Shown here in pieces: positions 7,436 through 64,000 of a stretch of DNA of 64,000 nucleotides. A model generated the notes under the pieces. It was not told the DNA's origin and did not search any database. It saw nothing but the letters and a program-made list of their open reading frames with translations. Both the position numbers and the translations under genes were made by a program. Origin of the DNA: Laetmonice hystrix (Eukaryota); assembly GCA_965235115.1 (NCBI GenBank), contig OZ249436.1, forward strand, positions 21,826,001-21,890,000, in the 5' to 3' direction. How positions within the stretch are numbered: position 1 is the first letter of the stretch; each line of letters begins with the position of its first letter.

Positions 7436-7507
7436 ACATAAATTATGGCGGTGAGAGAGCTCGGGGTTAGACCTAAACTAAAGCTACACCTACCAGGAAA
7501 AAAACAG

Positions 7508-7924: not shown

Positions 7925-8022
7925 GATGCTTTGGTGGGTATGGGTGACACTCTCTGAATGTTGACTTTGGCAACCAGAAGTAAAATTCCTTTGTATAGTG
8001 AGTTTCCCATCAGGCCCCTACA

Positions 8023-9979: not shown

Positions 9980-10051
9980 ACATAAATTATGGCGGTGAGA
10001 GAGCTCGGGGTTAGACCTAAACTAAAGCTACACCTACCAGGAAAAAAACAG

Positions 10052-10468: not shown

Positions 10469-10566
10469 GATGCTTTGGTGGGTATGGGTGACACTCTCTG
10501 AATGTTGACTTTGGCAACCAGAAGTAAAATTCCTTTGTATAGTGAGTTTCCCATCAGGCCCCTACA

Positions 10567-11014
10567 GGTTATGATCCACTATTTATTTTCTTCTATAATT
10601 TAATGTAATGTTTTGGCCATTTTCAATGTTTAAAATAATTTCTGCGAATGTCTGCTTGGCATGGCAGGTTAGATATGCATGTTTCCGACAATAAAAACTC
10701 AATTTACGTATAGGTTGAATGATTAGATTTTATTTTATCGGAGCTTCTGTTACATGACCCCAGGTGGCACCACCAAATCGACCAGAATACAGGCCTGTGA
10801 TACATAACATATTGGCTAAGATTTTCCAAGGAAAGTTAAGCAGATATTCTCTAATAATACACTGATATTATTGATCATATAGTGAACTTTTTCTCTGTGG
10901 TATTTGATGAGCACATTCAGGGGGGTTATATCCATTCTTGGCCCTAGATACATTCACTCCATACCATTTTGAGGGACAACCAGCAGCCCATTGGCTAAAT
11001 AGGGGGTCATGACC
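10567..11014 (+). repeat. LTDR copy 5
   Basis: Same sequence as 391-838. Confidence 0.92.
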
Positions 11015-11741
11015 TACAGATCAAGACCCATCACCCCGAATCTGTTCAAAATTGGACCCCTTTAATGGTTATATGTTTGCAACAACCACACAAAATATAA
11101 ATGGTGTAGACTAAATGAAGACTGAGTTATCGATCATATACAATATGGACACTCGGAGATAAAAAAAACCCTATTTTGCCCTGCACTCATAGCAGTATTC
11201 TGACTTTGTGCACAAATTAGACAATGAATAAATTCATCTATGAACTTCTCATTTTAGTTATGTATTAAGCCAACATGTAAAGTGTTCAAAAGTTGAAATT
11301 AATAAATATAAAGTGAGAATCTTCATTCCCTATGAAGCATGTGAGTACCCCCTGTCATATTTTCAGTAAAAAAAAAGGTCCACTTTATTATATTTATCCC
11401 CATATCTCCCTATGTTGGATTTCAAAAGTGTCAAATTCAGTTGAGGGAATATGGGAAGGATGTTAACTTCAAAGAAACATCAAAAGAGATGTACTCCAAG
11501 TGTCTGTGTGGATGTATGGACCCCTCAAAGGTGGTCACCCACCCCAGGCAGGAAGCCTAGGTTAATAGGGGGAGGGGTTCAAAGGTGCCACTTGAGAGTC
11601 TGAGCTGCCTGGGAAGAGGGTGGGAGTGGGTATATATGAAGCCAACAGGCAGATCAAACTCAGTATCATTTTTCTGTTTGATTAGAACAGGATTTAAAAA
11701 AAAATTCGCCTAAATTATAGAGAATTTCTTAGAAAACTACC

Positions 11742-12523
11742 ATGACATCACGTAGCAGAAAGAAGCACAGCTGGAGACATGGCTTTCAACCTGGTAACTG
11801 CGCCTACAAGTTGAGAAAGCAGGCCGGTAGGCCTGAACCAGACGTAGGTGTCTATGTAAGACCCACCAAAGAAGAATTCGAATTACTCCGCTCACCTACA
11901 CACAGTGGAAGAGGAGATCAGGCTGCAGCCACCATCACCGACAGTGAGGGCCGGCTGTGCAAGGCAAGGCCTTGCAAACAAAAAAAAAGAAAAACTGGCT
12001 GTCACACAGTGCATTCCTGCCTGAGGGCTTTGGCCTTACATGCACGGATGGTGACAAGGAGAAACTGGTCAGACTGATTGAATACAGGCTGGGCCAGAAA
12101 GTCCTGGAAAAGACCAAACACCTGTTAACCACCCAGAAATGTGAAGCTGTCAACAGGGCCATAAGCAGTACAACACCCAAGAACAAAACATTTTCAAGGA
12201 ACTTTGCTGCCAGAGTGCACTGTGCTGTGAATGCTGTGAATCGAGGGATTGGTGATTCAATCCTGAGTCAAACAGAGTTTGTGGGAGCCCCAGTCACTCC
12301 TGGTACACGGGTGACACGTGGCCTGCTGCGACGTCAGCAGCAGGACATGGCCAGAAAACTTGCCAGGGGGTCAACAAAGAAAAAGAATGCACGAATCAAC
12401 AAAAGAAGGACACTTTTTAAGCTTAAGGACACCTGCGAACCACAGGATTCTAAAACTTATTACCAGAAAAATCTTGCCTTGAAACAGACTCAGCACAGTG
12501 ACCATACCTACACAAAAATGTGA
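11742..12523 (+). pseudogene. Deleted Kolobok-type transposase, copy 5
   Basis: Identical translation to 1566-2347. Confidence 0.72.
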
Positions 12524-12595
12524 ACATAAATTATGGCGGTGAGAGAGCTCGGGGTTAGACCTAAACTAAAGCTACACCTACCAGGAAAAAAACAG

Positions 12596-13012
12596 TTAGG
12601 GGGGCCTAGGGGTGTGTTCCCGGGTGCAAACTTGCTGTGCATTACAAACACGTCTTGCAGCATTCACTGGACGTGGCTCAAGGGTCAGGTGGGAGGGATT
12701 CACACACAGGGTTTGGTGGCACAAATGGCTAATTTCAACCCTATCTCCCTGAAGATTGATGTTGGGGGGCATTAAAATCTGAACCGAAATGTGGTTAATA
12801 TTTGGTTGTTGAATAAGGTAGTGTAATTGATAGGCTAATCTATGGACACGAAAATAAATCTTTTTAGAGGAACCTGGCAAACGAAGACTTAGAACCCCAT
12901 AGTGTGAATCTCCCCACCTGGCCTCTGTCCACAGGAGGCACCCTCCACAAACGAGTCTACGTTTACTCAGTAACCTGCCCTGTACTTCTGTGACAGCCTG
13001 CCGCGGCTCCAT
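12596..13012 (-). CDS. His-Cys box endonuclease copy
   Basis: Identical to 2420-2836. Confidence 0.88.
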   Translation of the reverse strand: MEPRQAVTEVQGRLLSKRRLVCGGCLLWTEARWGDSHYGVLSLRLPGSSKKIYFRVHRLAYQLHYLIQQPNINHISVQILMPPNINLQGDRVEISHLCHQTLCVNPSHLTLEPRPVNAARRVCNAQQVCTREHTPRPP

Positions 13013-13110
13013 GATGCTTTGGTGGGTATGGGTGACACTCTCTGAATGTTGACTTTGGCAACCAGAAGTAAAATTCCTTTGTATAGTGAGTTTCCCATCA
13101 GGCCCCTACA

Positions 13111-13558
13111 GGTTATGATCCACTATTTATTTTCTTCTATAATTTAATGTAATGTTTTGGCCATTTTCAATGTTTAAAATAATTTCTGCGAATGTCTGCT
13201 TGGCATGGCAGGTTAGATATGCATGTTTCCGACAATAAAAACTCAATTTACGTATAGGTTGAATGATTAGATTTTATTTTATCGGAGCTTCTGTTACATG
13301 ACCCCAGGTGGCACCACCAAATCGACCAGAATACAGGCCTGTGATACATAACATATTGGCTAAGATTTTCCAAGGAAAGTTAAGCAGATATTCTCTAATA
13401 ATACACTGATATTATTGATCATATAGTGAACTTTTTCTCTGTGGTATTTGATGAGCACATTCAGGGGGGTTATATCCATTCTTGGCCCTAGATACATTCA
13501 CTCCATACCATTTTGAGGGACAACCAGCAGCCCATTGGCTAAATAGGGGGTCATGACC
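13111..13558 (+). repeat. LTDR copy 6
   Basis: Same sequence as 391-838. Confidence 0.92.
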
Positions 13559-14285
13559 TACAGATCAAGACCCATCACCCCGAATCTGTTCAAAATTGGA
13601 CCCCTTTAATGGTTATATGTTTGCAACAACCACACAAAATATAAATGGTGTAGACTAAATGAAGACTGAGTTATCGATCATATACAATATGGACACTCGG
13701 AGATAAAAAAAACCCTATTTTGCCCTGCACTCATAGCAGTATTCTGACTTTGTGCACAAATTAGACAATGAATAAATTCATCTATGAACTTCTCATTTTA
13801 GTTATGTATTAAGCCAACATGTAAAGTGTTCAAAAGTTGAAATTAATAAATATAAAGTGAGAATCTTCATTCCCTATGAAGCATGTGAGTACCCCCTGTC
13901 ATATTTTCAGTAAAAAAAAAGGTCCACTTTATTATATTTATCCCCATATCTCCCTATGTTGGATTTCAAAAGTGTCAAATTCAGTTGAGGGAATATGGGA
14001 AGGATGTTAACTTCAAAGAAACATCAAAAGAGATGTACTCCAAGTGTCTGTGTGGATGTATGGACCCCTCAAAGGTGGTCACCCACCCCAGGCAGGAAGC
14101 CTAGGTTAATAGGGGGAGGGGTTCAAAGGTGCCACTTGAGAGTCTGAGCTGCCTGGGAAGAGGGTGGGAGTGGGTATATATGAAGCCAACAGGCAGATCA
14201 AACTCAGTATCATTTTTCTGTTTGATTAGAACAGGATTTAAAAAAAAATTCGCCTAAATTATAGAGAATTTCTTAGAAAACTACC

Positions 14286-15067
14286 ATGACATCACGTAGC
14301 AGAAAGAAGCACAGCTGGAGACATGGCTTTCAACCTGGTAACTGCGCCTACAAGTTGAGAAAGCAGGCCGGTAGGCCTGAACCAGACGTAGGTGTCTATG
14401 TAAGACCCACCAAAGAAGAATTCGAATTACTCCGCTCACCTACACACAGTGGAAGAGGAGATCAGGCTGCAGCCACCATCACCGACAGTGAGGGCCGGCT
14501 GTGCAAGGCAAGGCCTTGCAAACAAAAAAAAAGAAAAACTGGCTGTCACACAGTGCATTCCTGCCTGAGGGCTTTGGCCTTACATGCACGGATGGTGACA
14601 AGGAGAAACTGGTCAGACTGATTGAATACAGGCTGGGCCAGAAAGTCCTGGAAAAGACCAAACACCTGTTAACCACCCAGAAATGTGAAGCTGTCAACAG
14701 GGCCATAAGCAGTACAACACCCAAGAACAAAACATTTTCAAGGAACTTTGCTGCCAGAGTGCACTGTGCTGTGAATGCTGTGAATCGAGGGATTGGTGAT
14801 TCAATCCTGAGTCAAACAGAGTTTGTGGGAGCCCCAGTCACTCCTGGTACACGGGTGACACGTGGCCTGCTGCGACGTCAGCAGCAGGACATGGCCAGAA
14901 AACTTGCCAGGGGGTCAACAAAGAAAAAGAATGCACGAATCAACAAAAGAAGGACACTTTTTAAGCTTAAGGACACCTGCGAACCACAGGATTCTAAAAC
15001 TTATTACCAGAAAAATCTTGCCTTGAAACAGACTCAGCACAGTGACCATACCTACACAAAAATGTGA
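14286..15067 (+). pseudogene. Deleted Kolobok-type transposase, copy 6
   Basis: Identical translation to 1566-2347. Confidence 0.72.
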
Positions 15068-15139
15068 ACATAAATTATGGCGGTGAGAGAGCTCGGGGTT
15101 AGACCTAAACTAAAGCTACACCTACCAGGAAAAAAACAG

Positions 15140-15556
15140 TTAGGGGGGCCTAGGGGTGTGTTCCCGGGTGCAAACTTGCTGTGCATTACAAACACGTCTT
15201 GCAGCATTCACTGGACGTGGCTCAAGGGTCAGGTGGGAGGGATTCACACACAGGGTTTGGTGGCACAAATGGCTAATTTCAACCCTATCTCCCTGAAGAT
15301 TGATGTTGGGGGGCATTAAAATCTGAACCGAAATGTGGTTAATATTTGGTTGTTGAATAAGGTAGTGTAATTGATAGGCTAATCTATGGACACGAAAATA
15401 AATCTTTTTAGAGGAACCTGGCAAACGAAGACTTAGAACCCCATAGTGTGAATCTCCCCACCTGGCCTCTGTCCACAGGAGGCACCCTCCACAAACGAGT
15501 CTACGTTTACTCAGTAACCTGCCCTGTACTTCTGTGACAGCCTGCCGCGGCTCCAT
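15140..15556 (-). CDS. His-Cys box endonuclease copy
   Basis: Identical to 2420-2836. Confidence 0.88.
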   Translation of the reverse strand: MEPRQAVTEVQGRLLSKRRLVCGGCLLWTEARWGDSHYGVLSLRLPGSSKKIYFRVHRLAYQLHYLIQQPNINHISVQILMPPNINLQGDRVEISHLCHQTLCVNPSHLTLEPRPVNAARRVCNAQQVCTREHTPRPP

Positions 15557-16289
15557 GATGCTTTGGTGGGTATGGGTGACACTCTCTGAATGTTAAGCCA
15601 TTCCAGATAGAGCTATACTTAGCGCTCTATCCTTCGACACCATTATTTTTTAGGTCTATGGCGTCAGAAGGATGTCTATGTTTTAGCATGGTTGGCGTTA
15701 GAGACATAGTTACTATTAAACACCAATAGGAAGTCTACGGAAGCGTATATCGGTCTCGCCCTACGCCTTGGCTATAACTTATGGTGCCTTATTTATCACG
15801 CTATGGTTACCAAGGCGCCTTAATAGTGCTTCTTAAGAAATAAGTCGCCTTAATTAAGGCGCCTTATAACACAAGGTGTCTTAATTAAGGCGCTTAATTA
15901 TAACAACGCGACAGTATGCCTTAATTTAGCGCCTTAAAAATTAAATTAGTACGCCTTAGTTATGGCGTCTTAGCTATCCCCTCCTGTGAAGTAAACTATC
16001 TTTAAGGCGCCTTACTAACACGCCTTAGTAAGAAATTGCCGTAACTAGCATGTCTTAAAAGTACAAGTCAAGTTAATTATGGGCATTATAAATATAAGCA
16101 AGCTAAATTAACAGTGATCACGTCAAATTTTATTTGATAACACCTTACGTTATAACGTAGGATGCTTTACATAGCATGTCTTGTCGGTATAAAATCGGAC
16201 ATGCAGCCGGTTCCGCGTGCAGCTGGGTTTTCCACTCATGTGACGTTGCTTCCTGTGCAGCCCAGATAGGTCAGCATAACATCTGATTA

Positions 16290-17882: not shown

Positions 17883-17886
<4 letters not shown>

Positions 17887-24880: not shown

Positions 24881-24882
24881 TA

Positions 24883-46704: not shown

Positions 46705-47570
46705 TATATCTTAGCTACACCTTGCTAATGAGCTTTGGCTGTATCCTTTTTACAACATTAAAAAAATAATTATTTAGGATAAATTACAAAGGGGCGTCTT
46801 GCCTCATATTGGAGGCAAGACGCCCCCTGGAGGCATCTTGCCCCACCCCCGGGGCCTATATCCAAACCATAAAAGCCTGGCAGATTCCCTCTTAATAATT
46901 TTGTTATTTTCGTTTCTTTTGAATGTGGGCCTTCCAACCTGTTATGTTGAATTTAAAGTTAGGGCCTAAGGTGCATGTCCAGACTGGGGGGGGGGGGGGA
47001 GCCCCAAAATTTTAAGGGGGGCCCCTGGCCCCTTTTCCTATTAAAAAGTTATTTTTCTATTTGGGGGGATCTAGATCTATAGCCCCCAGGACAAAAGCCA
47101 AAGTAGGCCAATTTCGGCACCCATATGCCTAGTAGGCCTAGATCAATTTGACACAACCAAAGCGTCTAAAACAAATAAATTTTTCAGGCGTTGTTCAAGG
47201 GAGAGTGCCCTTCAAGATAGTCTATTCTTACCATATTTTCTCATTTGATCTGGGCCATGGCGCAAATTGGGCACTTTTGCTGTGCAATCAGTCGGCCGGG
47301 GAGCGGTTTGACGCGTTGTCGCCAGACGGCCTTCAGTACAAGGCTAGGTGGCGCTGTGGTCACCGTCAGTAAAGCAAGGTATTGGTGACAACAGAAGTTC
47401 ATAAACGTATTTTGTTGTTTTATCATAACGAAGAAAAAGAAAAGTTCCTTCTTCTAAATCAGCATTAATTTTATTGTGAAAATAGCAAGCTTGGATACCT
47501 TATCTCAGAACTAAGGGCATTATCCTTTCAGTATTCCCAAATGAAAAAATGAAACCTTCGTAGATGAAAA

Positions 47571-47592
47571 TACACCATTCTTGATGAGTTAG
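47571..47592 (+). promoter_or_regulatory. Candidate snRNA proximal sequence element (PSE)
   Basis: acaccattct(t/g)gatgagttagg sits ~65-45 nt upstream of U5 and is conserved between both U5 variants while flanks diverge. Confidence 0.5.
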
Positions 47593-47635
47593 GTACTTGA
47601 ACCACTCGACACTTCCCCTCTTCAGTAAATCAGAG

Positions 47636-47757
47636 AACTCACGTTTCTCCTCATTCCACGTATAAATCTTTCGCCTTTTACTAAAGATTTCCGTGGGGAG
47701 GAACATTACAATGAGTCTATAGACGAATTTTTGCATCCCTGCTCTCAGAGCGGGGTA
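47636..47757 (+). ncRNA. U5: U5 spliceosomal snRNA (variant A)
   Basis: Invariant stem-loop 1 aaatctttcGCCTTTTACtaaagatttccgtgg, closing stem actca/tgagt, Sm site AATTTTTG and 3' hairpin ccctgctc-tca-gagcgggg. Ends are accurate to about +/-2 nt. Confidence 0.95.
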
Positions 47758-48277
47758 ATTAAAAAAGGAAGAATAGTCTCCTAACGCAAACTGATTCAGA
47801 CGACGAATGTTGTTTGTAAATAGGCCTAAATAAGATGGAAAAACAAAAATTGTAAAATAGTAAATGAAGAAATTAAGGTTACCGCAAGGAAATATATATT
47901 CCAGTGGTTTCAGAATTATTTTAGGAACATCTCCTCAAAGAGTGGGGAATTTAATGCAAAGGAACTGCATGTTCTGCCTGAAGGCGGCATTATGTACACG
48001 TTACAGGTATAAAATGTTTTCTTTTTATTATAAATGGTTATTCTGCCTGGAAAGAAACAAATAACACAAACACGTAATGGGCCCCCGGACGGGCGCGTTG
48101 GCAACAGAGGTAGACCTACCTGCCTGTTGTCCAAAAGATTACCTATAAATAAATTTTGCAGTTCTTGTTAAAAGGAGACTGCGCTTCAAGATACTCTATT
48201 CTTAGCATATTTTGTCATTTGATCTGGGCCATGGCACAAATTGGGCGCTTTTGCTGTGCAATAAGTCGGCCGGGGAG

Positions 48278-50286
48278 CAGTCTCGGTAACGCCAGACTCT
48301 CAGATAAGAGAGTCTGGGAGAGTTCCGATCTTTCATTGTTACCGCATGGTGGCGCGTCGAACGTTTAGGAACATAAGCGGCTCGAGGAGGCCAGAGAAAA
48401 ACAACCGACCTTTTCGCTTCACGAAAATTCGCTTGATAAAATTGCTCGACAAGACTACGTTTTACTAAGAAAAAGTCGTCATCATGTGTAAAATATGACT
48501 CTAGGCCCCCTATTTTGGCTATAGGCCTATAGGCCGACTGATTGCATTGTGCGGTGTAGAGCGAACACCTAGGCTGTGTGCATGTCAATTGTCCGTTGAA
48601 ATTTGAAAAATCCTTAATACTATCTTACTCAGTTCCTAAAGTTCTATGGTTCATACAATAAAGTTAATTGCTTATCAAACGACATATAGGCCCACTAGCC
48701 TATATGTAGGTGACCGATTAAACAGACGCTGTCTCAGGTTTGGAAATATGTGATCTATGATATAGGCCCCTATGCCGTGCTGGGCAGTGGGCGGGCGCTT
48801 ACTGGCTCACCCGCCGGGAGCGACCGGTGGGGGCCAGGGGCAGGGGAGCGAGGCGGCAGGCAGGCAAGACGCCAGAGTCCATGCAAGCAGGGATGATGCC
48901 GTCCTTGCAAAACGTCTCTAGACTAGAATATAAAACACACATTCCGCCCAATAGCGCTCCAATATTAGTTACGGGTTTTCCTATTAAACCGAGGCTGTCT
49001 CAGGCTTGAAAATATGGCAGACTCTGACTGCGTAAGGTCAGACTTGCAGGCTCAGCCCGGCGGGAGTGACCGAGCCCGAGGTGGCGGCCGGCGCTGCAGG
49101 CGGGGTAGGCCTACCGAAGTCTGTGCATGCATGCACTCGGAACACCGACGCTGCTTCTGATTGGCTGTTTCTAGGTCATATCCGGAGGCGAAGCAGGCCT
49201 CGGATGTATGAAGCGGCCATTTTCCCGTTTTTCGTGCAAAGTAGTGTAAAGCGGTCGCACATGAACACAAGAGTAAATAGTCGACCCCTACGCACAGGCA
49301 CATAGGCCTTGTTCAAATATAATTTCTCAGCATACCTATACCTCGAATTTTCTATCGTGGAGACAAAACAGTCTCTTCTTCACCTGGGAGGAAACCCAGA
49401 TATTCTGACTTTGTATAAAGTCCGACACTAGGGAGTTCTACATTTTCGGCACGGCGGCAGCGCGCGAGTTTGTTGTTTACATCCGGGTCAGTGGTCCCGA
49501 CCTAGCCACCCACCCACCCCACCCCCCAGCATGGCGACCTTCGTCGTACAGCCGAGATATGACGGAGTCAATCGTGGGTGAGCCGAGTGTGCATGCATGA
49601 TGCCGCCGTTGGAGGCTTGTATAAAACGTCGCGAGAACGCTAAAACCAGCCGTTGATCAGCATGAGCAGACTTCCGCTAATTTGACCAATCGGCTGCAAG
49701 ACGACCGGATGCAGAATTCCTGTAGCCTACTTTTTGAAAGCCGCTTATGTCTCGGAACAACGTCACAAACAGTAGATACAAAAGGTTATGATCCACTATT
49801 TATTTTCTTCTATAATTTAATGTAATGTTTTGGCCATTTTCAATGTTTAAAATAATTTCTGCGAATGTCTGCTTGGCATGGCAGGTTAGATATGCATGTT
49901 TCCGACAATAAAAACTCAATTTACGTATAGGTTGAATGATTAGATTTTATTTTATCGGAGCTTCTGTTACATGACCCCAGGTGGCACCACCAAATCGACC
50001 AGAATACAGGCCTGTGATACATAACATATTGGCTAAGATTTTCCAAGGAAAGTTAAGCAGATATTCTCTAATAATACACTGATATTATTGATCATAATAG
50101 TGAACTTTTTCTCTGTGGTATTTGATGAGCACATTCAGGGGGGTTATATCCATTCTTGGCCCTAGATACATTCACTCCATACCTTTTTGAGGGACAACCA
50201 GCAGCCCATTGGCTAAATAGGGGGTCATGACCAAAAGCTTCCAGACCCTCTGCTAGGGCCGCTGAGGGTCTGGATAATCGAGACTG
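48278..50286. mobile_element. Non-autonomous Academ(H)-like DNA transposon, 9-bp TSD
   Basis: gccggggag|cagtctcg...ccagac ... gtctgg...cgagactg|gccggggag. The empty site aagtcggccggggagcggtttg is seen at ~51331. YAG..CTR termini with a 9-bp TSD recall AcademH. Confidence 0.78.
49784..50232 (+). mobile_element. Solo LTDR of the KolobokP-like element, AAAA TSD
   Basis: aaaa|ggttatgatcc ... gtcatgacc|aaaa. It differs from 391-838 by one inserted A and one A>T change as seen by eye. Confidence 0.92.
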
Positions 50287-50633
50287 GCCGGGGAGCGGTT
50301 TGACGCGTTGTCGCCAGACGGCCTTCAGTGCACAAGGCTATAGGTGGCGCTGTGGTCACCGTAAGTAAACCAAGGTATATGCTGATAACAGAAGTACATA
50401 AACATATTAGCCTATGTTGTTTTATCATAACAAAGAAAAAGAAAAGTTCCTTCTTTTAAATCAGCATTTATTGTGAAAAATAGCAAGCTTGGATACCTTA
50501 TCTCAGACCTAAGGCATTTTCCAGTAAGGACCCCCCCCCCCCCCAAATGAAACATTCGTAGATGAAAAGACACCATTCTGGATGAGTTAGGTACTTGAAC
50601 CACTCGACACTTCCCCTGTTCAGTAAATCAGAG

Positions 50634-50755
50634 AACTCACGTTTCTCCTCATTCCACGTATAAATCTTTCGCCTTTTACTAAAGATTTCCGTGGGGAGGA
50701 ACATTACAATGAGTCTATAGACGAATTTTTGCATCCCTGCTCTAAGAGCGGGGTA
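50634..50755 (+). ncRNA. U5: U5 snRNA (variant B)
   Basis: As variant A, but the 3' hairpin loop reads taa instead of tca. Confidence 0.95.
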
Positions 50756-51679
50756 AATGAATAATGAAGAATAGTCTCCTAACGCAAACTGATTCAGACG
50801 AAGAATGTTGTTTATGAATAGGCCTAATTGGGATGGAAAATAAAAATTGTAACTAGTAAATGAAGAAAAAAAGATTACCGCAAGGAGATACATTCCAGTG
50901 CCTTTCAGAATTATTTGAGGAACATCTCCTCAAAGGGCTGGGTATTTAAAGCGAGGGAACTGAATGTTCTGCCTGAAGGCAGCATATAGGTACACGCTAC
51001 AGTTAATGTTTTCTTTTTATCATAAATATCTATTCTGCCTGAAAAAAACCCATCAAACACGCAATGTGCCCCCGGACGGGCGCGGTGACGACAGAGGTAG
51101 ACCTACCTTCCCGTTGTCCTAAAGATTACCTACACACAGAAGCCTTAGAGCGTCTGTACTCTTTTCATGGTCTCGATGTATGGATCAATTTGACAAAACC
51201 AATGCGTCTAAGACAAATAAATTTTGCAGTCGTTCTTCAAGGCAGACTGCCCTTCAAGATGCTCTATTCTTAGCATATTTTGTCATTTGATCTGGGCCAT
51301 GGCGTAAATTGGGCACTTTTGCTGTGCAATAAGTCGGCCGGGGAGCGGTTTGACACGTTGTCGCCAGACGGCCTTCAGTGCACAAGGCTAGGTGGCGCTG
51401 TGGTCACCGTAAGTAAACCAAGGTATTGCTGATAACAGAAGTTCATAAACATATTATGTTGTTTTATCATAACGAAGAAAAAGAAAAGTTCCTTCTTCTA
51501 AATCAGCATTAATTTTATTGTGAAAATAGCAAGCTTGGATACCTTATCTCAGAACTAAGGGCATTATCCTTTCAGTATTCCCAAATGAAAAAATGAAACC
51601 TTCGTAGATGAAAATACACCATTCTTGATGAGTTAGGTACTTGAACCACTCGACACTTCCCCTCTTCAGTAAATCAGAG

Positions 51680-51801
51680 AACTCACGTTTCTCCTCATTC
51701 CACGTATAAATCTTTCGCCTTTTACTAAAGATTTCCGTGGGGAGGAACATTACAATGAGTCTATAGACGAATTTTTGCATCCCTGCTCTCAGAGCGGGGT
51801 A
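51680..51801 (+). ncRNA. U5: U5 snRNA (variant A)
   Basis: Same as 47636-47757. Confidence 0.95.
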
Positions 51802-52321
51802 ATTAAAAAAGGAAGAATAGTCTCCTAACGCAAACTGATTCAGACGACGAATGTTGTTTGTAAATAGGCCTAAATAAGATGGAAAAACAAAAATTGTAAA
51901 ATAGTAAATGAAGAAATTAAGGTTACCGCAAGGAAATATATATTCCAGTGGTTTCAGAATTATTTTAGGAACATCTCCTCAAAGAGTGGGGAATTTAATG
52001 CAAAGGAACTGCATGTTCTGCCTGAAGGCGGCATTATGTACACGTTACAGGTATAAAATGTTTTCTTTTTATTATAAATGGTTATTCTGCCTGGAAAGAA
52101 ACAAATAACACAAACACGTAATGGGCCCCCGGACGGGCGCGTTGGCAACAGAGGTAGACCTACCTGCCTGTTGTCCAAAAGATTACCTATAAATAAATTT
52201 TGCAGTTCTTGTTAAAAGGAGACTGCGCTTCAAGATACTCTATTCTTAGCATATTTTGTCATTTGATCTGGGCCATGGCACAAATTGGGCGCTTTTGCTG
52301 TGCAATAAGTCGGCCGGGGAG

Positions 52322-54331
52322 CAGTCTCGGTAACGCCAGACTCTCAGATAAGAGAGTCTGGGAGAGTTCCGATCTTTCATTGTTACCGCATGGTGGCGCG
52401 TCGAACGTTTAGGAACATAAGCGGCTCGAGGAGGCCAGAGAAAAACAACCGACCTTTTCGCTTCACGAAAATTCGCTTGATAAAATTGCTCGACAAGACT
52501 ACGTTTTACTAAGAAAAAGTCGTCATCATGTGTAAAATATGACTCTAGGCCCCCTATTTTGGCTATAGGCCTATAGGCCGACTGATTGCATTGTGCGGTG
52601 TAGAGCGAACACCTAGGCTGTGTGCATGTCAATTGTCCGTTGAAATTTGAAAAATCCTTAATACTATCTTACTCAGTTCCTAAAGTTCTATGGTTCATAC
52701 AATAAAGTTAATTGCTTATCAAACGACATATAGGCCCACTAGCCTATATGTAGGTGACCGATTAAACAGACGCTGTCTCAGGTTTGGAAATATGTGATCT
52801 ATGATATAGGCCCCTATGCCGTGCTGGGCAGTGGGCGGGCGCTTACTGGCTCACCCGCCGGGAGCGACCGGTGGGGGCCAGGGGCAGGGGAGCGAGGCGG
52901 CAGGCAGGCAAGACGCCAGAGTCCATGCAAGCAGGGATGATGCCGTCCTTGCAAAACGTCTCTAGACTAGAATATAAAACACACATTCCGCCCAATAGCG
53001 CTCCAATATTAGTTACGGGTTTTCCTATTAAACCGAGGCTGTCTCAGGCTTGAAAATATGGCAGACTCTGACTGCGTAAGGTCAGACTTGCAGGCTCAGC
53101 CCGGCGGGAGTGACCGAGCCCGAGGTGGCGGCCGGCGCTGCAGGCGGGGTAGGCCTACCGAAGTCTGTGCATGCATGCACTCGGAACACCGACGCTGCTT
53201 CTGATTGGCTGTTTCTAGGTCATATCCGGAGGCGAAGCAGGCCTCGGATGTATGAAGCGGCCATTTTCCCGTTTTTCGTGCAAAGTAGTGTAAAGCGGTC
53301 GCACATGAACACAAGAGTAAATAGTCGACCCCTACGCACAGGCACATAGGCCTTGTTCAAATATAATTTCTCAGCATACCTATACCTCGAATTTTCTATC
53401 GTGGAGACAAAACAGTCTCTTCTTCACCTGGGAGGAAACCCAGATATTCTGACTTTGTATAAAGTCCGACACTAGGGAGTTCTACATTTTCGGCACGGCG
53501 GCAGCGCGCGAGTTTGTTGTTTACATCCGGGTCAGTGGTCCCGACCTAGCCACCCACCCACCCCACCCCCCAGCATGGCGACCTTCGTCGTACAGCCGAG
53601 ATATGACGGAGTCAATCGTGGGTGAGCCGAGTGTGCATGCATGATGCCGCCGTTGGAGGCTTGTATAAAACGTCGCGAGAACGCTAAAACCAGCCGTTGA
53701 TCAGCATGAGCAGACTTCCGCTAAATTTGACCAATCGGCTGCAAGACGACCGGATGCAGAATTCCTGTAGCCTACTTTTTGAAAGCCGCTTATGTCTCGG
53801 AACAACGTCACAAACAGTAGATACAAAAGGTTATGATCCACTATTTATTTTCTTCTATAATTTAATGTAATGTTTTGGCCATTTTCAATGTTTAAAATAA
53901 TTTCTGCGAATGTCTGCTTGGCATGGCAGGTTAGATATGCATGTTTCCGACAATAAAAACTCAATTTACGTATAGGTTGAATGATTAGATTTTATTTTAT
54001 CGGAGCTTCTGTTACATGACCCCAGGTGGCACCACCAAATCGACCAGAATACAGGCCTGTGATACATAACATATTGGCTAAGATTTTCCAAGGAAAGTTA
54101 AGCAGATATTCTCTAATAATACACTGATATTATTGATCATAATAGTGAACTTTTTCTCTGTGGTATTTGATGAGCACATTCAGGGGGGTTATATCCATTC
54201 TTGGCCCTAGATACATTCACTCCATACCTTTTTGAGGGACAACCAGCAGCCCATTGGCTAAATAGGGGGTCATGACCAAAAGCTTCCAGACCCTCTGCTA
54301 GGGCCGCTGAGGGTCTGGATAATCGAGACTG
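52322..54331. mobile_element. Academ-like element copy 2
   Basis: Same termini and TSD. Confidence 0.78.
53829..54277 (+). mobile_element. Solo LTDR copy 2
   Basis: Same as 49784-50232. Confidence 0.92.
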
Positions 54332-54678
54332 GCCGGGGAGCGGTTTGACGCGTTGTCGCCAGACGGCCTTCAGTGCACAAGGCTATAGGTGGCGCTGTGG
54401 TCACCGTAAGTAAACCAAGGTATATGCTGATAACAGAAGTACATAAACATATTAGCCTATGTTGTTTTATCATAACAAAGAAAAAGAAAAGTTCCTTCTT
54501 TTAAATCAGCATTTATTGTGAAAAATAGCAAGCTTGGATACCTTATCTCAGACCTAAGGCATTTTCCAGTAAGGACCCCCCCCCCCCCCAAATGAAACAT
54601 TCGTAGATGAAAAGACACCATTCTGGATGAGTTAGGTACTTGAACCACTCGACACTTCCCCTGTTCAGTAAATCAGAG

Positions 54679-54800
54679 AACTCACGTTTCTCCTCATTCC
54701 ACGTATAAATCTTTCGCCTTTTACTAAAGATTTCCGTGGGGAGGAACATTACAATGAGTCTATAGACGAATTTTTGCATCCCTGCTCTAAGAGCGGGGTA
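54679..54800 (+). ncRNA. U5: U5 snRNA (variant B)
   Basis: Same as 50634-50755. Confidence 0.95.
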
Positions 54801-55724
54801 AATGAATAATGAAGAATAGTCTCCTAACGCAAACTGATTCAGACGAAGAATGTTGTTTATGAATAGGCCTAATTGGGATGGAAAATAAAAATTGTAACTA
54901 GTAAATGAAGAAAAAAAGATTACCGCAAGGAGATACATTCCAGTGCCTTTCAGAATTATTTGAGGAACATCTCCTCAAAGGGCTGGGTATTTAAAGCGAG
55001 GGAACTGAATGTTCTGCCTGAAGGCAGCATATAGGTACACGCTACAGTTAATGTTTTCTTTTTATCATAAATATCTATTCTGCCTGAAAAAAACCCATCA
55101 AACACGCAATGTGCCCCCGGACGGGCGCGGTGACGACAGAGGTAGACCTACCTTCCCGTTGTCCTAAAGATTACCTACACACAGAAGCCTTAGAGCGTCT
55201 GTACTCTTTTCATGGTCTCGATGTATGGATCAATTTGACAAAACCAATGCGTCTAAGACAAATAAATTTTGCAGTCGTTCTTCAAGGCAGACTGCCCTTC
55301 AAGATGCTCTATTCTTAGCATATTTTGTCATTTGATCTGGGCCATGGCGTAAATTGGGCACTTTTGCTGTGCAATAAGTCGGCCGGGGAGCGGTTTGACA
55401 CGTTGTCGCCAGACGGCCTTCAGTGCACAAGGCTAGGTGGCGCTGTGGTCACCGTAAGTAAACCAAGGTATTGCTGATAACAGAAGTTCATAAACATATT
55501 ATGTTGTTTTATCATAACGAAGAAAAAGAAAAGTTCCTTCTTCTAAATCAGCATTAATTTTATTGTGAAAATAGCAAGCTTGGATACCTTATCTCAGAAC
55601 TAAGGGCATTATCCTTTCAGTATTCCCAAATGAAAAAATGAAACCTTCGTAGATGAAAATACACCATTCTTGATGAGTTAGGTACTTGAACCACTCGACA
55701 CTTCCCCTCTTCAGTAAATCAGAG

Positions 55725-55846
55725 AACTCACGTTTCTCCTCATTCCACGTATAAATCTTTCGCCTTTTACTAAAGATTTCCGTGGGGAGGAACATTACAA
55801 TGAGTCTATAGACGAATTTTTGCATCCCTGCTCTCAGAGCGGGGTA
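55725..55846 (+). ncRNA. U5: U5 snRNA (variant A)
   Basis: Same as 47636-47757. Confidence 0.95.
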
Positions 55847-56366
55847 ATTAAAAAAGGAAGAATAGTCTCCTAACGCAAACTGATTCAGACGACGAATGTT
55901 GTTTGTAAATAGGCCTAAATAAGATGGAAAAACAAAAATTGTAAAATAGTAAATGAAGAAATTAAGGTTACCGCAAGGAAATATATATTCCAGTGGTTTC
56001 AGAATTATTTTAGGAACATCTCCTCAAAGAGTGGGGAATTTAATGCAAAGGAACTGCATGTTCTGCCTGAAGGCGGCATTATGTACACGTTACAGGTATA
56101 AAATGTTTTCTTTTTATTATAAATGGTTATTCTGCCTGGAAAGAAACAAATAACACAAACACGTAATGGGCCCCCGGACGGGCGCGTTGGCAACAGAGGT
56201 AGACCTACCTGCCTGTTGTCCAAAAGATTACCTATAAATAAATTTTGCAGTTCTTGTTAAAAGGAGACTGCGCTTCAAGATACTCTATTCTTAGCATATT
56301 TTGTCATTTGATCTGGGCCATGGCACAAATTGGGCGCTTTTGCTGTGCAATAAGTCGGCCGGGGAG

Positions 56367-58371
56367 CAGTCTCGGTAACGCCAGACTCTCAGATAAGAGA
56401 GTCTGGGAGAGTTCCGATCTTTCATTGTTACCGCATGGTGGCGCGTCGAACGTTTAGGAACATAAGCGGCTCGAGGAGGCCAGAGAAAAACAACCGACCT
56501 TTTCGCTTCACGAAAATATGATAAATTGCTCGACAAGACTACGTTTTACTAAGAAAAAGTCGTCATCATGTGTAAAATATGACTCTAGGCCCCCTATTTT
56601 GGCTATAGGCCTATAGGCCGACTGATTGCATTGTGCGGTGTAGAGCGAACACCTAGGCTGTGTGCATGTCAATTGTCCGTTGAAATTTGAAAAATCCTTA
56701 ATACTATCTTACTCAGTTCCTAAAGTTCTATGGTTCATACAATAAAGTTAATTGCTTATCAAACGACATATAGGCCCACTAGCCTATATGTAGGTGACCG
56801 ATTAAACAGACGCTGTCTCAGGTTTGGAAATATGTGATCTATGATATAGGCCCCTATGCCGTGCTGGGCAGTGGGCGGGCGCTTACTGGCTCACCCGCCG
56901 GGAGCGACCGGTGGGGGCCAGGGGCAGGGGAGCGAGGCGGCAGGCAGGCAAGACGCCAGAGTCCATGCAAGCAGGGATGATGCCGTCCTTGCAAAACGTC
57001 TCTAGACTAGAATATAAAACACACATTCCGCCCAATAGCGCTCCAATATTAGTTACGGGTTTTCCTATTAAACCGAGGCTGTCTCAGGCTTGAAAATATG
57101 GCAGACTCTGACTGCGTAAGGTCAGACTTGCAGGCTCAGCCCGGCGGGAGTGACCGAGCCCGAGGTGGCGGCCGGCGCTGCAGGCGGGGTAGGCCTACCG
57201 AAGTCTGTGCATGCATGCACTCGGAACACCGACGCTGCTTCTGATTGGCTGTTTCTAGGTCATATCCGGAGGCGAAGCAGGCCTCGGATGTATGAAGCGG
57301 CCATTTTCCCGTTTTTCGTGCAAAGTAGTGTAAAGCGGTCGCACATGAACACAAGAGTAAATAGTCGACCCCTACGCACAGGCACATAGGCCTTGTTCAA
57401 ATATAATTTCTCAGCATACCTATACCTCGAATTTTCTATCGTGGAGACAAAACAGTCTCTTCTTCACCTGGGAGGAAACCCAGATATTCTGACTTTGTAT
57501 AAAGTCCGACACTAGGGAGTTCTACATTTTCGGCACGGCGGCAGCGCGCGAGTTTGTTGTTTACATCCGGGTCAGTGGTCCCGACCTAGCCACCCACCCA
57601 CCCCACCCCCCAGCATGGCGACCTTCGTCGTACAGCCGAGATATGACGGAGTCAATCGTGGGTGAGCCGAGTGTGCATGCATGATGCCGCCGTTGGAGGC
57701 TTGTATAAAACGTCGCGAGAACGCTAAAACCAGCCGTTGATCAGCATGAGCAGACTTCCGCTAAATTTGACCAATCGGCTGCAAGACGACCGGATGCAGA
57801 ATTCCTGTAGCCTACTTTTTGAAAGCCGCTTATGTCTCGGAACAACGTCACAAACAGTAGATACAAAAGGTTATGATCCACTATTTATTTTCTTCTATAA
57901 TTTAATGTAATGTTTTGGCCATTTTCAATGTTTAAAATAATTTCTGCGAATGTCTGCTTGGCATGGCAGGTTAGATATGCATGTTTCCGACAATAAAAAC
58001 TCAATTTACGTATAGGTTGAATGATTAGATTTTATTTTATCGGAGCTTCTGTTACATGACCCCAGGTGGCACCACCAAATCGACCAGAATACAGGCCTGT
58101 GATACATAACATATTGGCTAAGATTTTCCAAGGAAAGTTAAGCAGATATTCTCTAATAATACACTGATATTATTGATCATAATAGTGAACTTTTTCTCTG
58201 TGGTATTTGATGAGCACATTCAGGGGGGTTATATCCATTCTTGGCCCTAGATACATTCACTCCATACCTTTTTGAGGGACAACCAGCAGCCCATTGGCTA
58301 AATAGGGGGTCATGACCAAAAGCTTCCAGACCCTCTGCTAGGGCCGCTGAGGGTCTGGATAATCGAGACTG
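56367..58371. mobile_element. Academ-like element copy 3
   Basis: Same termini and TSD, with a net 5-bp deletion near 56517. Confidence 0.78.
57869..58317 (+). mobile_element. Solo LTDR copy 3
   Basis: Same as 49784-50232. Confidence 0.92.
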
Positions 58372-58715
58372 GCCGGGGAGCGGTTTGACGCGTTGTCGCC
58401 AGACGGCCTTCAGTGCACAAGGCTATAGGTGGCGCTGTGGTCACCGTAAGTAAACCAAGGTATATGCTGATAACAGAAGTACATAAACATATTAGCCTAT
58501 GTTGTTTTATCATAACAAAGAAAAAGAAAAGTTCCTTCTTTTAAATCAGCATTTATTGTGAAAAATAGCAAGCTTGGATACCTTATCTCAGACCTAAGGC
58601 ATTTTCCAGTAAGGACCCCCCCCCCCAAATGAAACATTCGTAGATGAAAAGACACCATTCTGGATGAGTTAGGTACTTGAACCACTCGACACTTCCCCTG
58701 TTCAGTAAATCAGAG

Positions 58716-58837
58716 AACTCACGTTTCTCCTCATTCCACGTATAAATCTTTCGCCTTTTACTAAAGATTTCCGTGGGGAGGAACATTACAATGAGTCTAT
58801 AGACGAATTTTTGCATCCCTGCTCTAAGAGCGGGGTA
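58716..58837 (+). ncRNA. U5: U5 snRNA (variant B)
   Basis: Same as 50634-50755. Confidence 0.95.
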
Positions 58838-59761
58838 AATGAATAATGAAGAATAGTCTCCTAACGCAAACTGATTCAGACGAAGAATGTTGTTTATGAA
58901 TAGGCCTAATTGGGATGGAAAATAAAAATTGTAACTAGTAAATGAAGAAAAAAAGATTACCGCAAGGAGATACATTCCAGTGCCTTTCAGAATTATTTGA
59001 GGAACATCTCCTCAAAGGGCTGGGTATTTAAAGCGAGGGAACTGAATGTTCTGCCTGAAGGCAGCATATAGGTACACGCTACAGTTAATGTTTTCTTTTT
59101 ATCATAAATATCTATTCTGCCTGAAAAAAACCCATCAAACACGCAATGTGCCCCCGGACGGGCGCGGTGACGACAGAGGTAGACCTACCTTCCCGTTGTC
59201 CTAAAGATTACCTACACACAGAAGCCTTAGAGCGTCTGTACTCTTTTCATGGTCTCGATGTATGGATCAATTTGACAAAACCAATGCGTCTAAGACAAAT
59301 AAATTTTGCAGTCGTTCTTCAAGGCAGACTGCCCTTCAAGATGCTCTATTCTTAGCATATTTTGTCATTTGATCTGGGCCATGGCGTAAATTGGGCACTT
59401 TTGCTGTGCAATAAGTCGGCCGGGGAGCGGTTTGACACGTTGTCGCCAGACGGCCTTCAGTGCACAAGGCTAGGTGGCGCTGTGGTCACCGTAAGTAAAC
59501 CAAGGTATTGCTGATAACAGAAGTTCATAAACATATTATGTTGTTTTATCATAACGAAGAAAAAGAAAAGTTCCTTCTTCTAAATCAGCATTAATTTTAT
59601 TGTGAAAATAGCAAGCTTGGATACCTTATCTCAGAACTAAGGGCATTATCCTTTCAGTATTCCCAAATGAAAAAATGAAACCTTCGTAGATGAAAATACA
59701 CCATTCTTGATGAGTTAGGTACTTGAACCACTCGACACTTCCCCTCTTCAGTAAATCAGAG

Positions 59762-59883
59762 AACTCACGTTTCTCCTCATTCCACGTATAAATCTTTCGC
59801 CTTTTACTAAAGATTTCCGTGGGGAGGAACATTACAATGAGTCTATAGACGAATTTTTGCATCCCTGCTCTCAGAGCGGGGTA
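59762..59883 (+). ncRNA. U5: U5 snRNA (variant A)
   Basis: Same as 47636-47757. Confidence 0.95.
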
Positions 59884-60403
59884 ATTAAAAAAGGAAGAAT
59901 AGTCTCCTAACGCAAACTGATTCAGACGACGAATGTTGTTTGTAAATAGGCCTAAATAAGATGGAAAAACAAAAATTGTAAAATAGTAAATGAAGAAATT
60001 AAGGTTACCGCAAGGAAATATATATTCCAGTGGTTTCAGAATTATTTTAGGAACATCTCCTCAAAGAGTGGGGAATTTAATGCAAAGGAACTGCATGTTC
60101 TGCCTGAAGGCGGCATTATGTACACGTTACAGGTATAAAATGTTTTCTTTTTATTATAAATGGTTATTCTGCCTGGAAAGAAACAAATAACACAAACACG
60201 TAATGGGCCCCCGGACGGGCGCGTTGGCAACAGAGGTAGACCTACCTGCCTGTTGTCCAAAAGATTACCTATAAATAAATTTTGCAGTTCTTGTTAAAAG
60301 GAGACTGCGCTTCAAGATACTCTATTCTTAGCATATTTTGTCATTTGATCTGGGCCATGGCACAAATTGGGCGCTTTTGCTGTGCAATAAGTCGGCCGGG
60401 GAG

Positions 60404-62413
60404 CAGTCTCGGTAACGCCAGACTCTCAGATAAGAGAGTCTGGGAGAGTTCCGATCTTTCATTGTTACCGCATGGTGGCGCGTCGAACGTTTAGGAACAT
60501 AAGCGGCTCGAGGAGGCCAGAGAAAAACAACCGACCTTTTCGCTTCACGAAAATTCGCTTGATAAAATTGCTCGACAAGACTACGTTTTACTAAGAAAAA
60601 GTCGTCATCATGTGTAAAATATGACTCTAGGCCCCCTATTTTGGCTATAGGCCTATAGGCCGACTGATTGCATTGTGCGGTGTAGAGCGAACACCTAGGC
60701 TGTGTGCATGTCAATTGTCCGTTGAAATTTGAAAAATCCTTAATACTATCTTACTCAGTTCCTAAAGTTCTATGGTTCATACAATAAAGTTAATTGCTTA
60801 TCAAACGACATATAGGCCCACTAGCCTATATGTAGGTGACCGATTAAACAGACGCTGTCTCAGGTTTGGAAATATGTGATCTATGATATAGGCCCCTATG
60901 CCGTGCTGGGCAGTGGGCGGGCGCTTACTGGCTCACCCGCCGGGAGCGACCGGTGGGGGCCAGGGGCAGGGGAGCGAGGCGGCAGGCAGGCAAGACGCCA
61001 GAGTCCATGCAAGCAGGGATGATGCCGTCCTTGCAAAACGTCTCTAGACTAGAATATAAAACACACATTCCGCCCAATAGCGCTCCAATATTAGTTACGG
61101 GTTTTCCTATTAAACCGAGGCTGTCTCAGGCTTGAAAATATGGCAGACTCTGACTGCGTAAGGTCAGACTTGCAGGCTCAGCCCGGCGGGAGTGACCGAG
61201 CCCGAGGTGGCGGCCGGCGCTGCAGGCGGGGTAGGCCTACCGAAGTCTGTGCATGCATGCACTCGGAACACCGACGCTGCTTCTGATTGGCTGTTTCTAG
61301 GTCATATCCGGAGGCGAAGCAGGCCTCGGATGTATGAAGCGGCCATTTTCCCGTTTTTCGTGCAAAGTAGTGTAAAGCGGTCGCACATGAACACAAGAGT
61401 AAATAGTCGACCCCTACGCACAGGCACATAGGCCTTGTTCAAATATAATTTCTCAGCATACCTATACCTCGAATTTTCTATCGTGGAGACAAAACAGTCT
61501 CTTCTTCACCTGGGAGGAAACCCAGATATTCTGACTTTGTATAAAGTCCGACACTAGGGAGTTCTACATTTTCGGCACGGCGGCAGCGCGCGAGTTTGTT
61601 GTTTACATCCGGGTCAGTGGTCCCGACCTAGCCACCCACCCACCCCACCCCCCAGCATGGCGACCTTCGTCGTACAGCCGAGATATGACGGAGTCAATCG
61701 TGGGTGAGCCGAGTGTGCATGCATGATGCCGCCGTTGGAGGCTTGTATAAAACGTCGCGAGAACGCTAAAACCAGCCGTTGATCAGCATGAGCAGACTTC
61801 CGCTAAATTTGACCAATCGGCTGCAAGACGACCGGATGCAGAATTCCTGTAGCCTACTTTTTGAAAGCCGCTTATGTCTCGGAACAACGTCACAAACAGT
61901 AGATACAAAAGGTTATGATCCACTATTTATTTTCTTCTATAATTTAATGTAATGTTTTGGCCATTTTCAATGTTTAAAATAATTTCTGCGAATGTCTGCT
62001 TGGCATGGCAGGTTAGATATGCATGTTTCCGACAATAAAAACTCAATTTACGTATAGGTTGAATGATTAGATTTTATTTTATCGGAGCTTCTGTTACATG
62101 ACCCCAGGTGGCACCACCAAATCGACCAGAATACAGGCCTGTGATACATAACATATTGGCTAAGATTTTCCAAGGAAAGTTAAGCAGATATTCTCTAATA
62201 ATACACTGATATTATTGATCATAATAGTGAACTTTTTCTCTGTGGTATTTGATAAGCACATTCAGGGGGGTTATATCCATTCTTGGCCCTAGATACATTC
62301 ACTCCATACCTTTTTGAGGGACAACCAGCAGCCCATTGGCTAAATAGGGGGTCATGACCAAAAGCTTCCAGACCCTCTGCTAGGGCCGCTGAGGGTCTGG
62401 ATAATCGAGACTG
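60404..62413. mobile_element. Academ-like element copy 4
   Basis: Same termini and TSD. Confidence 0.78.
61911..62359 (+). mobile_element. Solo LTDR copy 4
   Basis: Same as 49784-50232, with a private G>A at 62254. Confidence 0.92.
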
Positions 62414-62757
62414 GCCGGGGAGCGGTTTGACGCGTTGTCGCCAGACGGCCTTCAGTGCACAAGGCTATAGGTGGCGCTGTGGTCACCGTAAGTAAACCAA
62501 GGTATATGCTGATAACAGAAGTACATAAACATATTAGCCTATGTTGTTTTATCATAACAAAGAAAAAGAAAAGTTCCTTCTTTTAAATCAGCATTTATTG
62601 TGAAAAATAGCAAGCTTGGATACCTTATCTCAGACCTAAGGCATTTTCCAGTAAGGACCCCCCCCCCCAAATGAAACATTCGTAGATGAAAAGACACCAT
62701 TCTGGATGAGTTAGGTACTTGAACCACTCGACACTTCCCCTGTTCAGTAAATCAGAG

Positions 62758-62879
62758 AACTCACGTTTCTCCTCATTCCACGTATAAATCTTTCGCCTTT
62801 TACTAAAGATTTCCGTGGGGAGGAACATTACAATGAGTCTATAGACGAATTTTTGCATCCCTGCTCTAAGAGCGGGGTA
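62758..62879 (+). ncRNA. U5: U5 snRNA (variant B)
   Basis: Same as 50634-50755. Confidence 0.95.
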
Positions 62880-63803
62880 AATGAATAATGAAGAATAGTC
62901 TCCTAACGCAAACTGATTCAGACGAAGAATGTTGTTTATGAATAGGCCTAATTGGGATGGAAAATAAAAATTGTAACTAGTAAATGAAGAAAAAAAGATT
63001 ACCGCAAGGAGATACATTCCAGTGCCTTTCAGAATTATTTGAGGAACATCTCCTCAAAGGGCTGGGTATTTAAAGCGAGGGAACTGAATGTTCTGCCTGA
63101 AGGCAGCATATAGGTACACGCTACAGTTAATGTTTTCTTTTTATCATAAATATCTATTCTGCCTGAAAAAAACCCATCAAACACGCAATGTGCCCCCGGA
63201 CGGGCGCGGTGACGACAGAGGTAGACCTACCTTCCCGTTGTCCTAAAGATTACCTACACACAGAAGCCTTAGAGCGTCTGTACTCTTTTCATGGTCTCGA
63301 TGTATGGATCAATTTGACAAAACCAATGCGTCTAAGACAAATAAATTTTGCAGTCGTTCTTCAAGGCAGACTGCCCTTCAAGATGCTCTATTCTTAGCAT
63401 ATTTTGTCATTTGATCTGGGCCATGGCGTAAATTGGGCACTTTTGCTGTGCAATAAGTCGGCCGGGGAGCGGTTTGACACGTTGTCGCCAGACGGCCTTC
63501 AGTGCACAAGGCTAGGTGGCGCTGTGGTCACCGTAAGTAAACCAAGGTATTGCTGATAACAGAAGTTCATAAACATATTATGTTGTTTTATCATAACGAA
63601 GAAAAAGAAAAGTTCCTTCTTCTAAATCAGCATTAATTTTATTGTGAAAATAGCAAGCTTGGATACCTTATCTCAGAACTAAGGGCATTATCCTTTCAGT
63701 ATTCCCAAATGAAAAAATGAAACCTTCGTAGATGAAAATACACCATTCTTGATGAGTTAGGTACTTGAACCACTCGACACTTCCCCTCTTCAGTAAATCA
63801 GAG

Positions 63804-63925
63804 AACTCACGTTTCTCCTCATTCCACGTATAAATCTTTCGCCTTTTACTAAAGATTTCCGTGGGGAGGAACATTACAATGAGTCTATAGACGAATTTTT
63901 GCATCCCTGCTCTCAGAGCGGGGTA
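63804..63925 (+). ncRNA. U5: U5 snRNA (variant A)
   Basis: Same as 47636-47757. Confidence 0.95.
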
Positions 63926-64000
63926 ATTAAAAAAGGAAGAATAGTCTCCTAACGCAAACTGATTCAGACGACGAATGTTGTTTGTAAATAGGCCTAAATA

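Follow-up and report, generated by a model that had tools for sequence, protein, structure and literature searches.

The window (the whole stretch of Laetmonice hystrix DNA analysed here, 64,000 nucleotides) holds two large tandem arrays that share one LTDR module, the one on the left made of a transposon and the one on the right made of U5 snRNA genes. The locus thus raises the question of whether an LTDR, or the enzymes that act on it, can promote tandem amplification of the DNA around it, as the initial annotation had suggested, or whether it is a passenger of DNA that expanded by other means. Our answer is that the module in the right array is, with high probability, a real solo KolobokP LTDR of a probably unlisted family, which lies inside another element within a U5 array older than itself. 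Most likely it was copied along as a passenger of the expanding array and was not the cause of the expansion. The coordinates of all features are given in Table 1.

Table 1. Position of the transposon, host-element and U5 features within the window
Feature	Position	Strand	Description
KolobokP multimer, (LTDR-INT)n	1..15594	+	2,544-bp unit; six LTDR-INT units
DDD/E transposase remnant	1557..2347	+	Internally deleted; ~77 aa kept at the N-terminus, ~180 aa at the C-terminus
His-Me finger (I-PpoI-like) nuclease ORF	2420..2836	-	138 aa from ATG; repeated in each unit
First higher-order U5 unit	47141..51182	+	4,042 bp; monomer A (no insertion) and monomer B (host element and LTDR)
U5 snRNA gene of monomer A, first unit	47635..47756	+	Rfam
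Target duplication of host element, left	48269..48277	+	9 bp, GCCGGGGAG
Host element	48278..50286	.	2,009 bp; ends CAGTCTCG..CGAGACTG; ~120-bp imperfect inverted ends
Left AAAA	49780..49783	+	Probable 4-bp target-site duplication
Solo KolobokP LTDR	49784..50232	+	449 bp; GG..CC ends; imperfect ~19-bp TIR
Right AAAA	50233..50236	+	Probable 4-bp target-site duplication
Target duplication of host element, right	50287-50295		9 bp, GCCGGGGAG
U5 snRNA gene of monomer B	50633..50754	+	Rfam RF00020, 91.7 bits; ~400 bp downstream of the LTDR
Further U5 units	51183..64000	+	Three full units (4,045, 4,037 and 4,042 bp) and a partial fifth
Further solo LTDRs	53829-54277, 57869-58317, 61911-62359		In units 2-4

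The left array is a KolobokP multimer

In the parts of the published description available to us, KolobokP transposons have LTDRs of ~450 or 660 bp with RR..YY ends, TIRs of up to 25 bp (Table S1) and mostly 4-bp TSDs (range 3-5 bp), and an identical 4-mer can stand at both ends of their INT (Kojima and Bao 2022, Mob DNA 13:24, PMC9587614). The same portions report solo LTDRs in all analysed families, (LTDR-INT)n multimers, insertions within other repeats with no strong target preference, and the loss of 1-5 bp at LTDR excisions (PMC9587614). The left array shares with this description an LTDR of about 450 bp (448 bp here, 449 bp in the solo copy), GG..CC ends with a short imperfect TIR, 4-bp flanks and an INT bounded by the same 4-mer. 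Its LTDRs start at 391, 2935, 5479, 8023, 10567 and 13111, the left end of the array lying outside the window, and TACA stands on both sides of all six. The five full units are identical (100% over 13 kb). The left array is therefore a KolobokP multimer, i.e. the element itself.

The multimer stops at 15594, where 60 bp of its last INT are still lacking, and it has no LTDR at its right end; the missing 60-bp tail does not occur downstream in the window. The gap exceeds the 1-5 bp reported as lost at KolobokP LTDR excisions. An excision of the LTDR that took an exceptionally long stretch with it could be responsible, or else a rearrangement at a later time. From 140 bp past the break, a nested fold-back occupies 15735-20118, in which 15735-16344 is inverted relative to 19508-20118 (97%) and 16292-17450 relative to 17999-19079 (92%); a TCTG microsatellite occupies its centre.

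The multimer encodes a deleted transposase and a probably defective nuclease

The gene layout is that reported for KolobokP in the parts of the source consulted: a transposase lying on the direct strand, with a His-Me nuclease downstream on the complementary strand. Relatives of the transposase measure 673-719 aa and are 71-72% identical to it over the C-terminal piece. The deletion removes ~415 aa (aa 78-493 of the relative P0002). Among the lost parts are the two catalytic D regions as well as the CCHC finger; the motif of the catalytic glutamate is still present. With residue roles taken from the alignment, the multimer transposase would have lost two of its three catalytic residues.

No Pfam family was assigned to the two transposase remnants, and the relatives contain a PF20700 (Mutator) domain. 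We rejected a MuDR identity for the LTDR element because of its GG..CC ends, its 4-bp flanks, the LTDR layout and the motifs shared with KolobokP; the relatives carry TQKCEA, a motif found 32 times in supplementary file 3 of PMC9587614, and the nuclease motifs agree with the alignment in that supplement.

The nuclease ORF matches PF05551 (E 1.9e-13) and I-PpoI (E 1e-4). A nuclease match was present in 22 of the 31 related metagenome loci, every time on the minus strand, and a word-based search with the nuclease found nothing. In 19 of these 22 relatives a terminal cysteine follows the last histidine (17 by pattern, 2 by eye), the other three being broken or divergent. The ORF in the window stops ahead of this terminal zinc cysteine, and P-N-C is found in the adjacent frame, so a one-base homopolymer slip, real or from assembly, is the likely source of the short end. 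With the transposase deleted by ~415 aa and the nuclease lacking its last cysteine, the enzymes of the neighbouring multimer are a dead transposase and a probably defective nuclease. Since all units share the deleted transposase and the short nuclease, the multimer was apparently amplified when the two genes had already suffered this damage, unless the short nuclease end is an assembly error.

Ten of the 31 related contigs (3.4-4.4 kb; L001, L002, L005, L009 and L012-L017) have the same 41-163 bases at their start and end. Such repeated ends are as expected from an LTDR-INT unit closing into a loop in the assembly graph, and they would look the same for a monomer, a multimer or a real circle.

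A solo LTDR recurs in four U5 units

Positions 49780-50236 consist of AAAA, the 449-bp module and AAAA, and nothing else. The termini of the module form an imperfect TIR in which 16 of 19 positions are complementary. It differs from the 448-bp LTDR of the left array by an extra A near position 312 and an A>T change at position 400, an identity of 99.6%. The nearest multimer LTDR ends at 13558, 36.2 kb from the solo copy, and the multimer itself ends 34.2 kb away. The four solo copies start at 49784, 53829, 57869 and 61911 with identical flanks, AAAA standing on both sides of all four, and the last of them carries a third difference, one further substitution. The locus therefore has the two forms described for KolobokP, a multimer of six LTDR-INT units and solo LTDRs, here four amplified copies of one solo insertion.

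Two equal random 4-mers drawn from the host element would be expected with a chance of 0.005, so the AAAA flanks are probably a target-site duplication. No unoccupied LTDR site was seen within the 64-kb window; an indirect test within it gave alignment scores of 58, 57 and 58 for zero, one and two copies of AAAA. These coordinates bear out the solo module with GG..CC ends, its own AAAA and two differences that the initial annotation had described, the TSD being probable. Its further proposal, that the solo transposed by itself or is what recombination left of a full element, agrees with the account of KolobokP in the sections of PMC9587614 at hand, where recombination and independent transposition are both given as origins of solo LTDRs.

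Searches for relatives of the module were carried out in several sets. Beyond the multimer and the solo copies, the window contains no LTDR copy or remnant longer than 19 bp; a 30-base LTDR pattern had 0 matches in metagenome contigs, and blastn of the LTDR against the 31 related loci returned no match. The first 11 bases of the LTDR are absent from all four supplementary files of PMC9587614, and the family is for this reason probably unlisted.

Three other readings of the solo copy were considered. A TACA lying three bases to its left might have been an INT remnant, but it is not contiguous with the GG. We also rejected a 34-kb composite that would run from the multimer to the solo, given that AAAA flanks the latter on both sides and both ends of the host element enclose it. 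That it represents the right LTDR missing from the multimer is unsupported in view of the 60 bp lost, against 1-5 bp, and of the two differences.

The LTDR is nested in an older non-coding element

The host element measures 1,556 bp once the LTDR and one AAAA are removed. Its target duplication GCCGGGGAG occurs once in the unoccupied monomer A (47295-47303); an alternative 11-bp duplication with shorter host-element ends fits the letters equally well. The LTDR interrupts the right inverted end of the element 50 bp from its tip, and the inverted similarity resumes on the inner side of the LTDR with a score reached by 7 of 1000 shuffles. Because this inverted end is interrupted by the LTDR and continues past it, the LTDR is nested in an older element, an insertion inside another repeat like those reported for KolobokP.

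The host element contains no long ORF (stop-to-stop frames of at most 140 aa) and a small hairpin is found in each ~120-bp inverted end. No other copy of it was found, and blastn against the 31 related loci gave no match. We take it to be Mutator-like from its 9-bp TSD and long TIR. It was inserted ~340 bp upstream of the U5 gene of monomer B, i.e. of every second U5 gene.

U5 tandem organisation probably predates the LTDR

Nine U5 genes were identified in the window with Rfam, from 47635 on, the right end of the array lying beyond the window. Tandem snRNA genes are known from marine invertebrates (PMC8167085, as far as this source was available). Between monomers A and B, the gene shows a single difference in 122 positions, with 98% identity over the 50 bp that precede it, which fits the view that both are functional U5 genes and that the promoter was spared by the insertion.

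Outside the gene, A and B differ by 71 substitutions in 713 positions, or 10.0% (Poisson 95% 7.8-12.6), against 2 in 449, or 0.45% (95% 0.05-1.6), between the solo LTDR and the multimer LTDR. The U5 monomers are thus ~20 times more diverged than the LTDR, and from this comparison the tandem organisation of the U5 genes would long predate this LTDR, unless conversion has rejuvenated the latter: gene conversion could make an LTDR appear younger than it is. With a single LTDR in place, the first duplication of the LTDR-bearing unit would have had to proceed without LTDR-LTDR homology.

Units 2-4 differ pairwise by 4, 7 and 9 columns of ~4,040. Of the columns in which unit 1 departs from unit 2, 23 fall in its first 272 bp and one more lies at 2538. 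These 272 bp (47141-47412) represent a third monomer type, 6-11% away from both A and B. Joined as it is to A-type sequence, this third type looks like the relic of an older monomer array. The homogenised block starts at least 275 bp into the first unit, where the sequence is homologous to U5 monomers. From the last edge-specific base rightwards to the first LTDR there are 2,372 bp, and those 2,372 bp recur in every unit. An array built by LTDR-LTDR exchange would be expected to begin at an LTDR with a unique flank, and the U5 array does not; its left edge instead appears to be the mark of an exchange between U5 monomers.

An assembly artefact offers a different explanation for the similarity of the units. 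If a consensus had been partially unrolled, the number of units, their near-identity and perhaps the closeness of the two arrays would not be real. The perfect identity of the multimer over 13 kb, its abrupt stop inside INT and the location of several U5-unit differences in homopolymers are what such an artefact would produce. We consider it very unlikely, given that some U5 units have variants of their own (6 columns changed in unit 3, one substitution in unit 4), that the left edge of the array is distinct, and that multimers and truncated ends have already been reported for KolobokP in the available parts of PMC9587614. Furthermore, three runs of one sample hold 56-66% of the sampled words of the unit, a figure that registers presence only and may come from the source sample itself. 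In all, six sequencing runs hold part of the unit, four of them from this one sample (maybe the source) and two from marine metagenomes, whose shares of 0.13 and 0.09 are too small to be evidence.

The LTDR most likely did not drive the expansion

The initial annotation rested its proposal on the presence of one LTDR per unit in both arrays. This count is true of both, but the unit of the left array is the transposon itself, and since that array is the element's own multimer, only the U5 array can test the amplification of flanking DNA. The strongest form of the proposal would have the LTDR or its transposase build the U5 array, either as an IS26-like translocatable unit or as an (LTDR-X)n-LTDR composite with U5 as cargo. 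One LTDR per 4-kb unit is what it predicts, and KolobokP is likened to IS26 units in the parts of PMC9587614 that we could consult. An IS26-like array, however, would begin at the element with a unique outer flank, and this one starts in U5 monomer sequence, with the 2.37 kb to the left of the first LTDR repeated in each unit. Its tandem organisation would also be no older than the element, and the two divergences given above (10.0% and 0.45%) say the opposite. In addition, the element in which the LTDR is nested still has its 9-bp duplication intact. We regard an LTDR-made array as extremely improbable, and the left edge as having already largely refuted it.

That the LTDR or its enzymes promote amplification of their surroundings finds no support at this locus, given the older U5 monomers and an array edge 2.4 kb from the LTDR. 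The host element occurs once per U5 unit just as the LTDR does, and the window contains two arrays that lack an LTDR, with periods of 127 bp (22052-23255) and 199/311 bp (30699-31966); being smaller and, at 88% and 96-97% matches, older, these are weak controls.

A softer alternative accepts the LTDR as a passenger and has a trans-acting KolobokP His-Me nuclease cut the LTDRs later on, raising unequal sister exchange and array turnover. The same process would have built the multimer and, as soon as two units had an LTDR, would have made the U5 dimer expand and homogenise faster. For multimers, nuclease-induced unequal crossover at LTDRs is indeed proposed in the available text of PMC9587614, and a comparable role has been suspected for the LTR in the unit of human RNU2 (PMC3795722, consulted in part); the role of the KolobokP nuclease is still awaiting experimental confirmation according to the accessible portion of a 2026 review (PMC13565253). 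The multimer and the U5 array are both very young, and intact enzymes encoded at another place in the genome might supply the activity in trans. Yet snRNA arrays homogenise unaided, the LTDR holds only weak half-palindromes (four, with 6/7 arm matches, counted without a control), and the nearby multimer encodes a nuclease without the terminal cysteine seen in 19 of 22 relatives. Moreover, the sole isolated substitution among units 2-4 falls inside an LTDR, where a conversion hotspot would tend to erase it, a weak argument as it concerns one event. On balance, we find an acceleration by the nuclease very unlikely.

The closeness of the two arrays can be explained otherwise. Local hopping of transposons is well known, and a 99.6% identical multimer nearby may point to such a hop or to activity of the family in this region, so the arrays could lie close together without any effect of the LTDR on amplification. 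The arrays, both of them extremely young, are separated by 32 kb, and the chance of such closeness depends on the copy number of the family, which for KolobokP LTDRs ranges from 0 to 2,693 (PMC9587614, Table S1). The word "local" has no match in the text of that paper as available to us.

Proposed history of the locus

We propose that the LTDR reached the U5 array as a passenger in the following way. The U5 genes were already tandem, as ~1-kb monomers that are observed to be ~10% diverged outside the gene. A non-coding element with a 9-bp duplication then entered monomer B, as the empty site in A shows. Into the right inverted end of this host element, a KolobokP transposase from elsewhere in the genome would have placed the LTDR, with duplication of AAAA; the nesting is visible in the alignment, and transposition is its presumed cause. 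We lean slightly towards the LTDR having arrived as a solo; its arrival as a full copy, later reduced by LTDR-LTDR recombination, has a little under an even chance, and with one locus only the two origins are inseparable here. The LTDR may also have joined the host element before the latter reached the U5 array.

In a last step, ordinary unequal crossing-over between the U5 monomers flanking B would have duplicated the A+B dimer, as the chimeric left edge suggests. Further exchanges would have expanded and homogenised the dimer, each of its contents being copied once per unit.

Other features of the window

Several other repeats are present between the two arrays. A 127-bp minisatellite at 21882-23255 has ~9-10 copies (88%) and a higher-order period of two units; it apparently lies within an element with inverted ends. 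At 30453-32000, a GGTACC-rich array shows periods of 112, 199 and 311 bp at 85-97%, its two ends being mutually inverted. Inverted copies (92%) of a ~860-bp MITE with ~195-bp inverted ends are found at 24880-25743 and 44856-45693, and another MITE, with ~205-bp inverted ends, lies immediately to the left of the U5 array (45875-46708).

On the minus strand, 34938-37918 contains exon-like frames, including one of 436 aa and a threonine-rich repeat region (37263-37711). The product of this gene is probably a mucin-like membrane protein; its two long frames had no match in Pfam. A scan for bacterial promoters and terminators stayed at chance level and is irrelevant to an animal locus.

Comparison with known systems and significance

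As in the KolobokP families covered by the consulted parts of PMC9587614, non-autonomous multimers with a deleted transposase occur here together with solo LTDRs. Those parts make no claim that LTDRs amplify flanking host DNA, and the term snRNA has 0 matches in the text and supplements. A search for a published link between KolobokP and snRNA arrays, covering mainly literature open without subscription, found none, and returned only the RNU2 precedent and general satellite papers; KolobokP itself was named in two papers of this literature.

Human RNU2 has a 6.1-kb unit made of one U2 gene, five Alus and one LTR (PMC3795722, seen in part). The two cases differ in that the human unit contains a retroviral LTR and a U2 gene, and the one described here the LTDR of a DNA transposon and a U5 gene. 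Also unlike the human case as reported there, the U5 unit is a dimer of diverged monomers, from which the sequence of events can be reconstructed. IS26 translocatable units and pseudo-composite transposons resemble the U5 array in having one terminal module per amplified unit, but IS26-type arrays are bounded by the element and the U5 array is not (available parts of PMC9587614). Dada transposons, which target small-RNA genes (PMC9587614, reference 11; PMC13565253; both consulted in part), provide another case of a DNA transposon associated with multicopy snRNA genes. They insert in the genes themselves, however, whereas the LTDR lies ~400 bp upstream and inside another element.

The locus is thus an example of a published type of element and of transposon passengers in an snRNA array, like the LTR and the Alus of RNU2. 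It is also useful as test material: a multimer and a host-gene array share one LTDR, so that the exchange points of the two can be compared. If LTDR cutting did drive the turnover of U5 genes, a transposon nuclease would control the copy number of an essential splicing-RNA gene, and the LTDR would be a portable recombination trigger with which the LTDR-bearing U5 dimer swept the locus. Such a result would be relevant to the long-standing issue of whether snRNA arrays are maintained with the help of terminal repeats.
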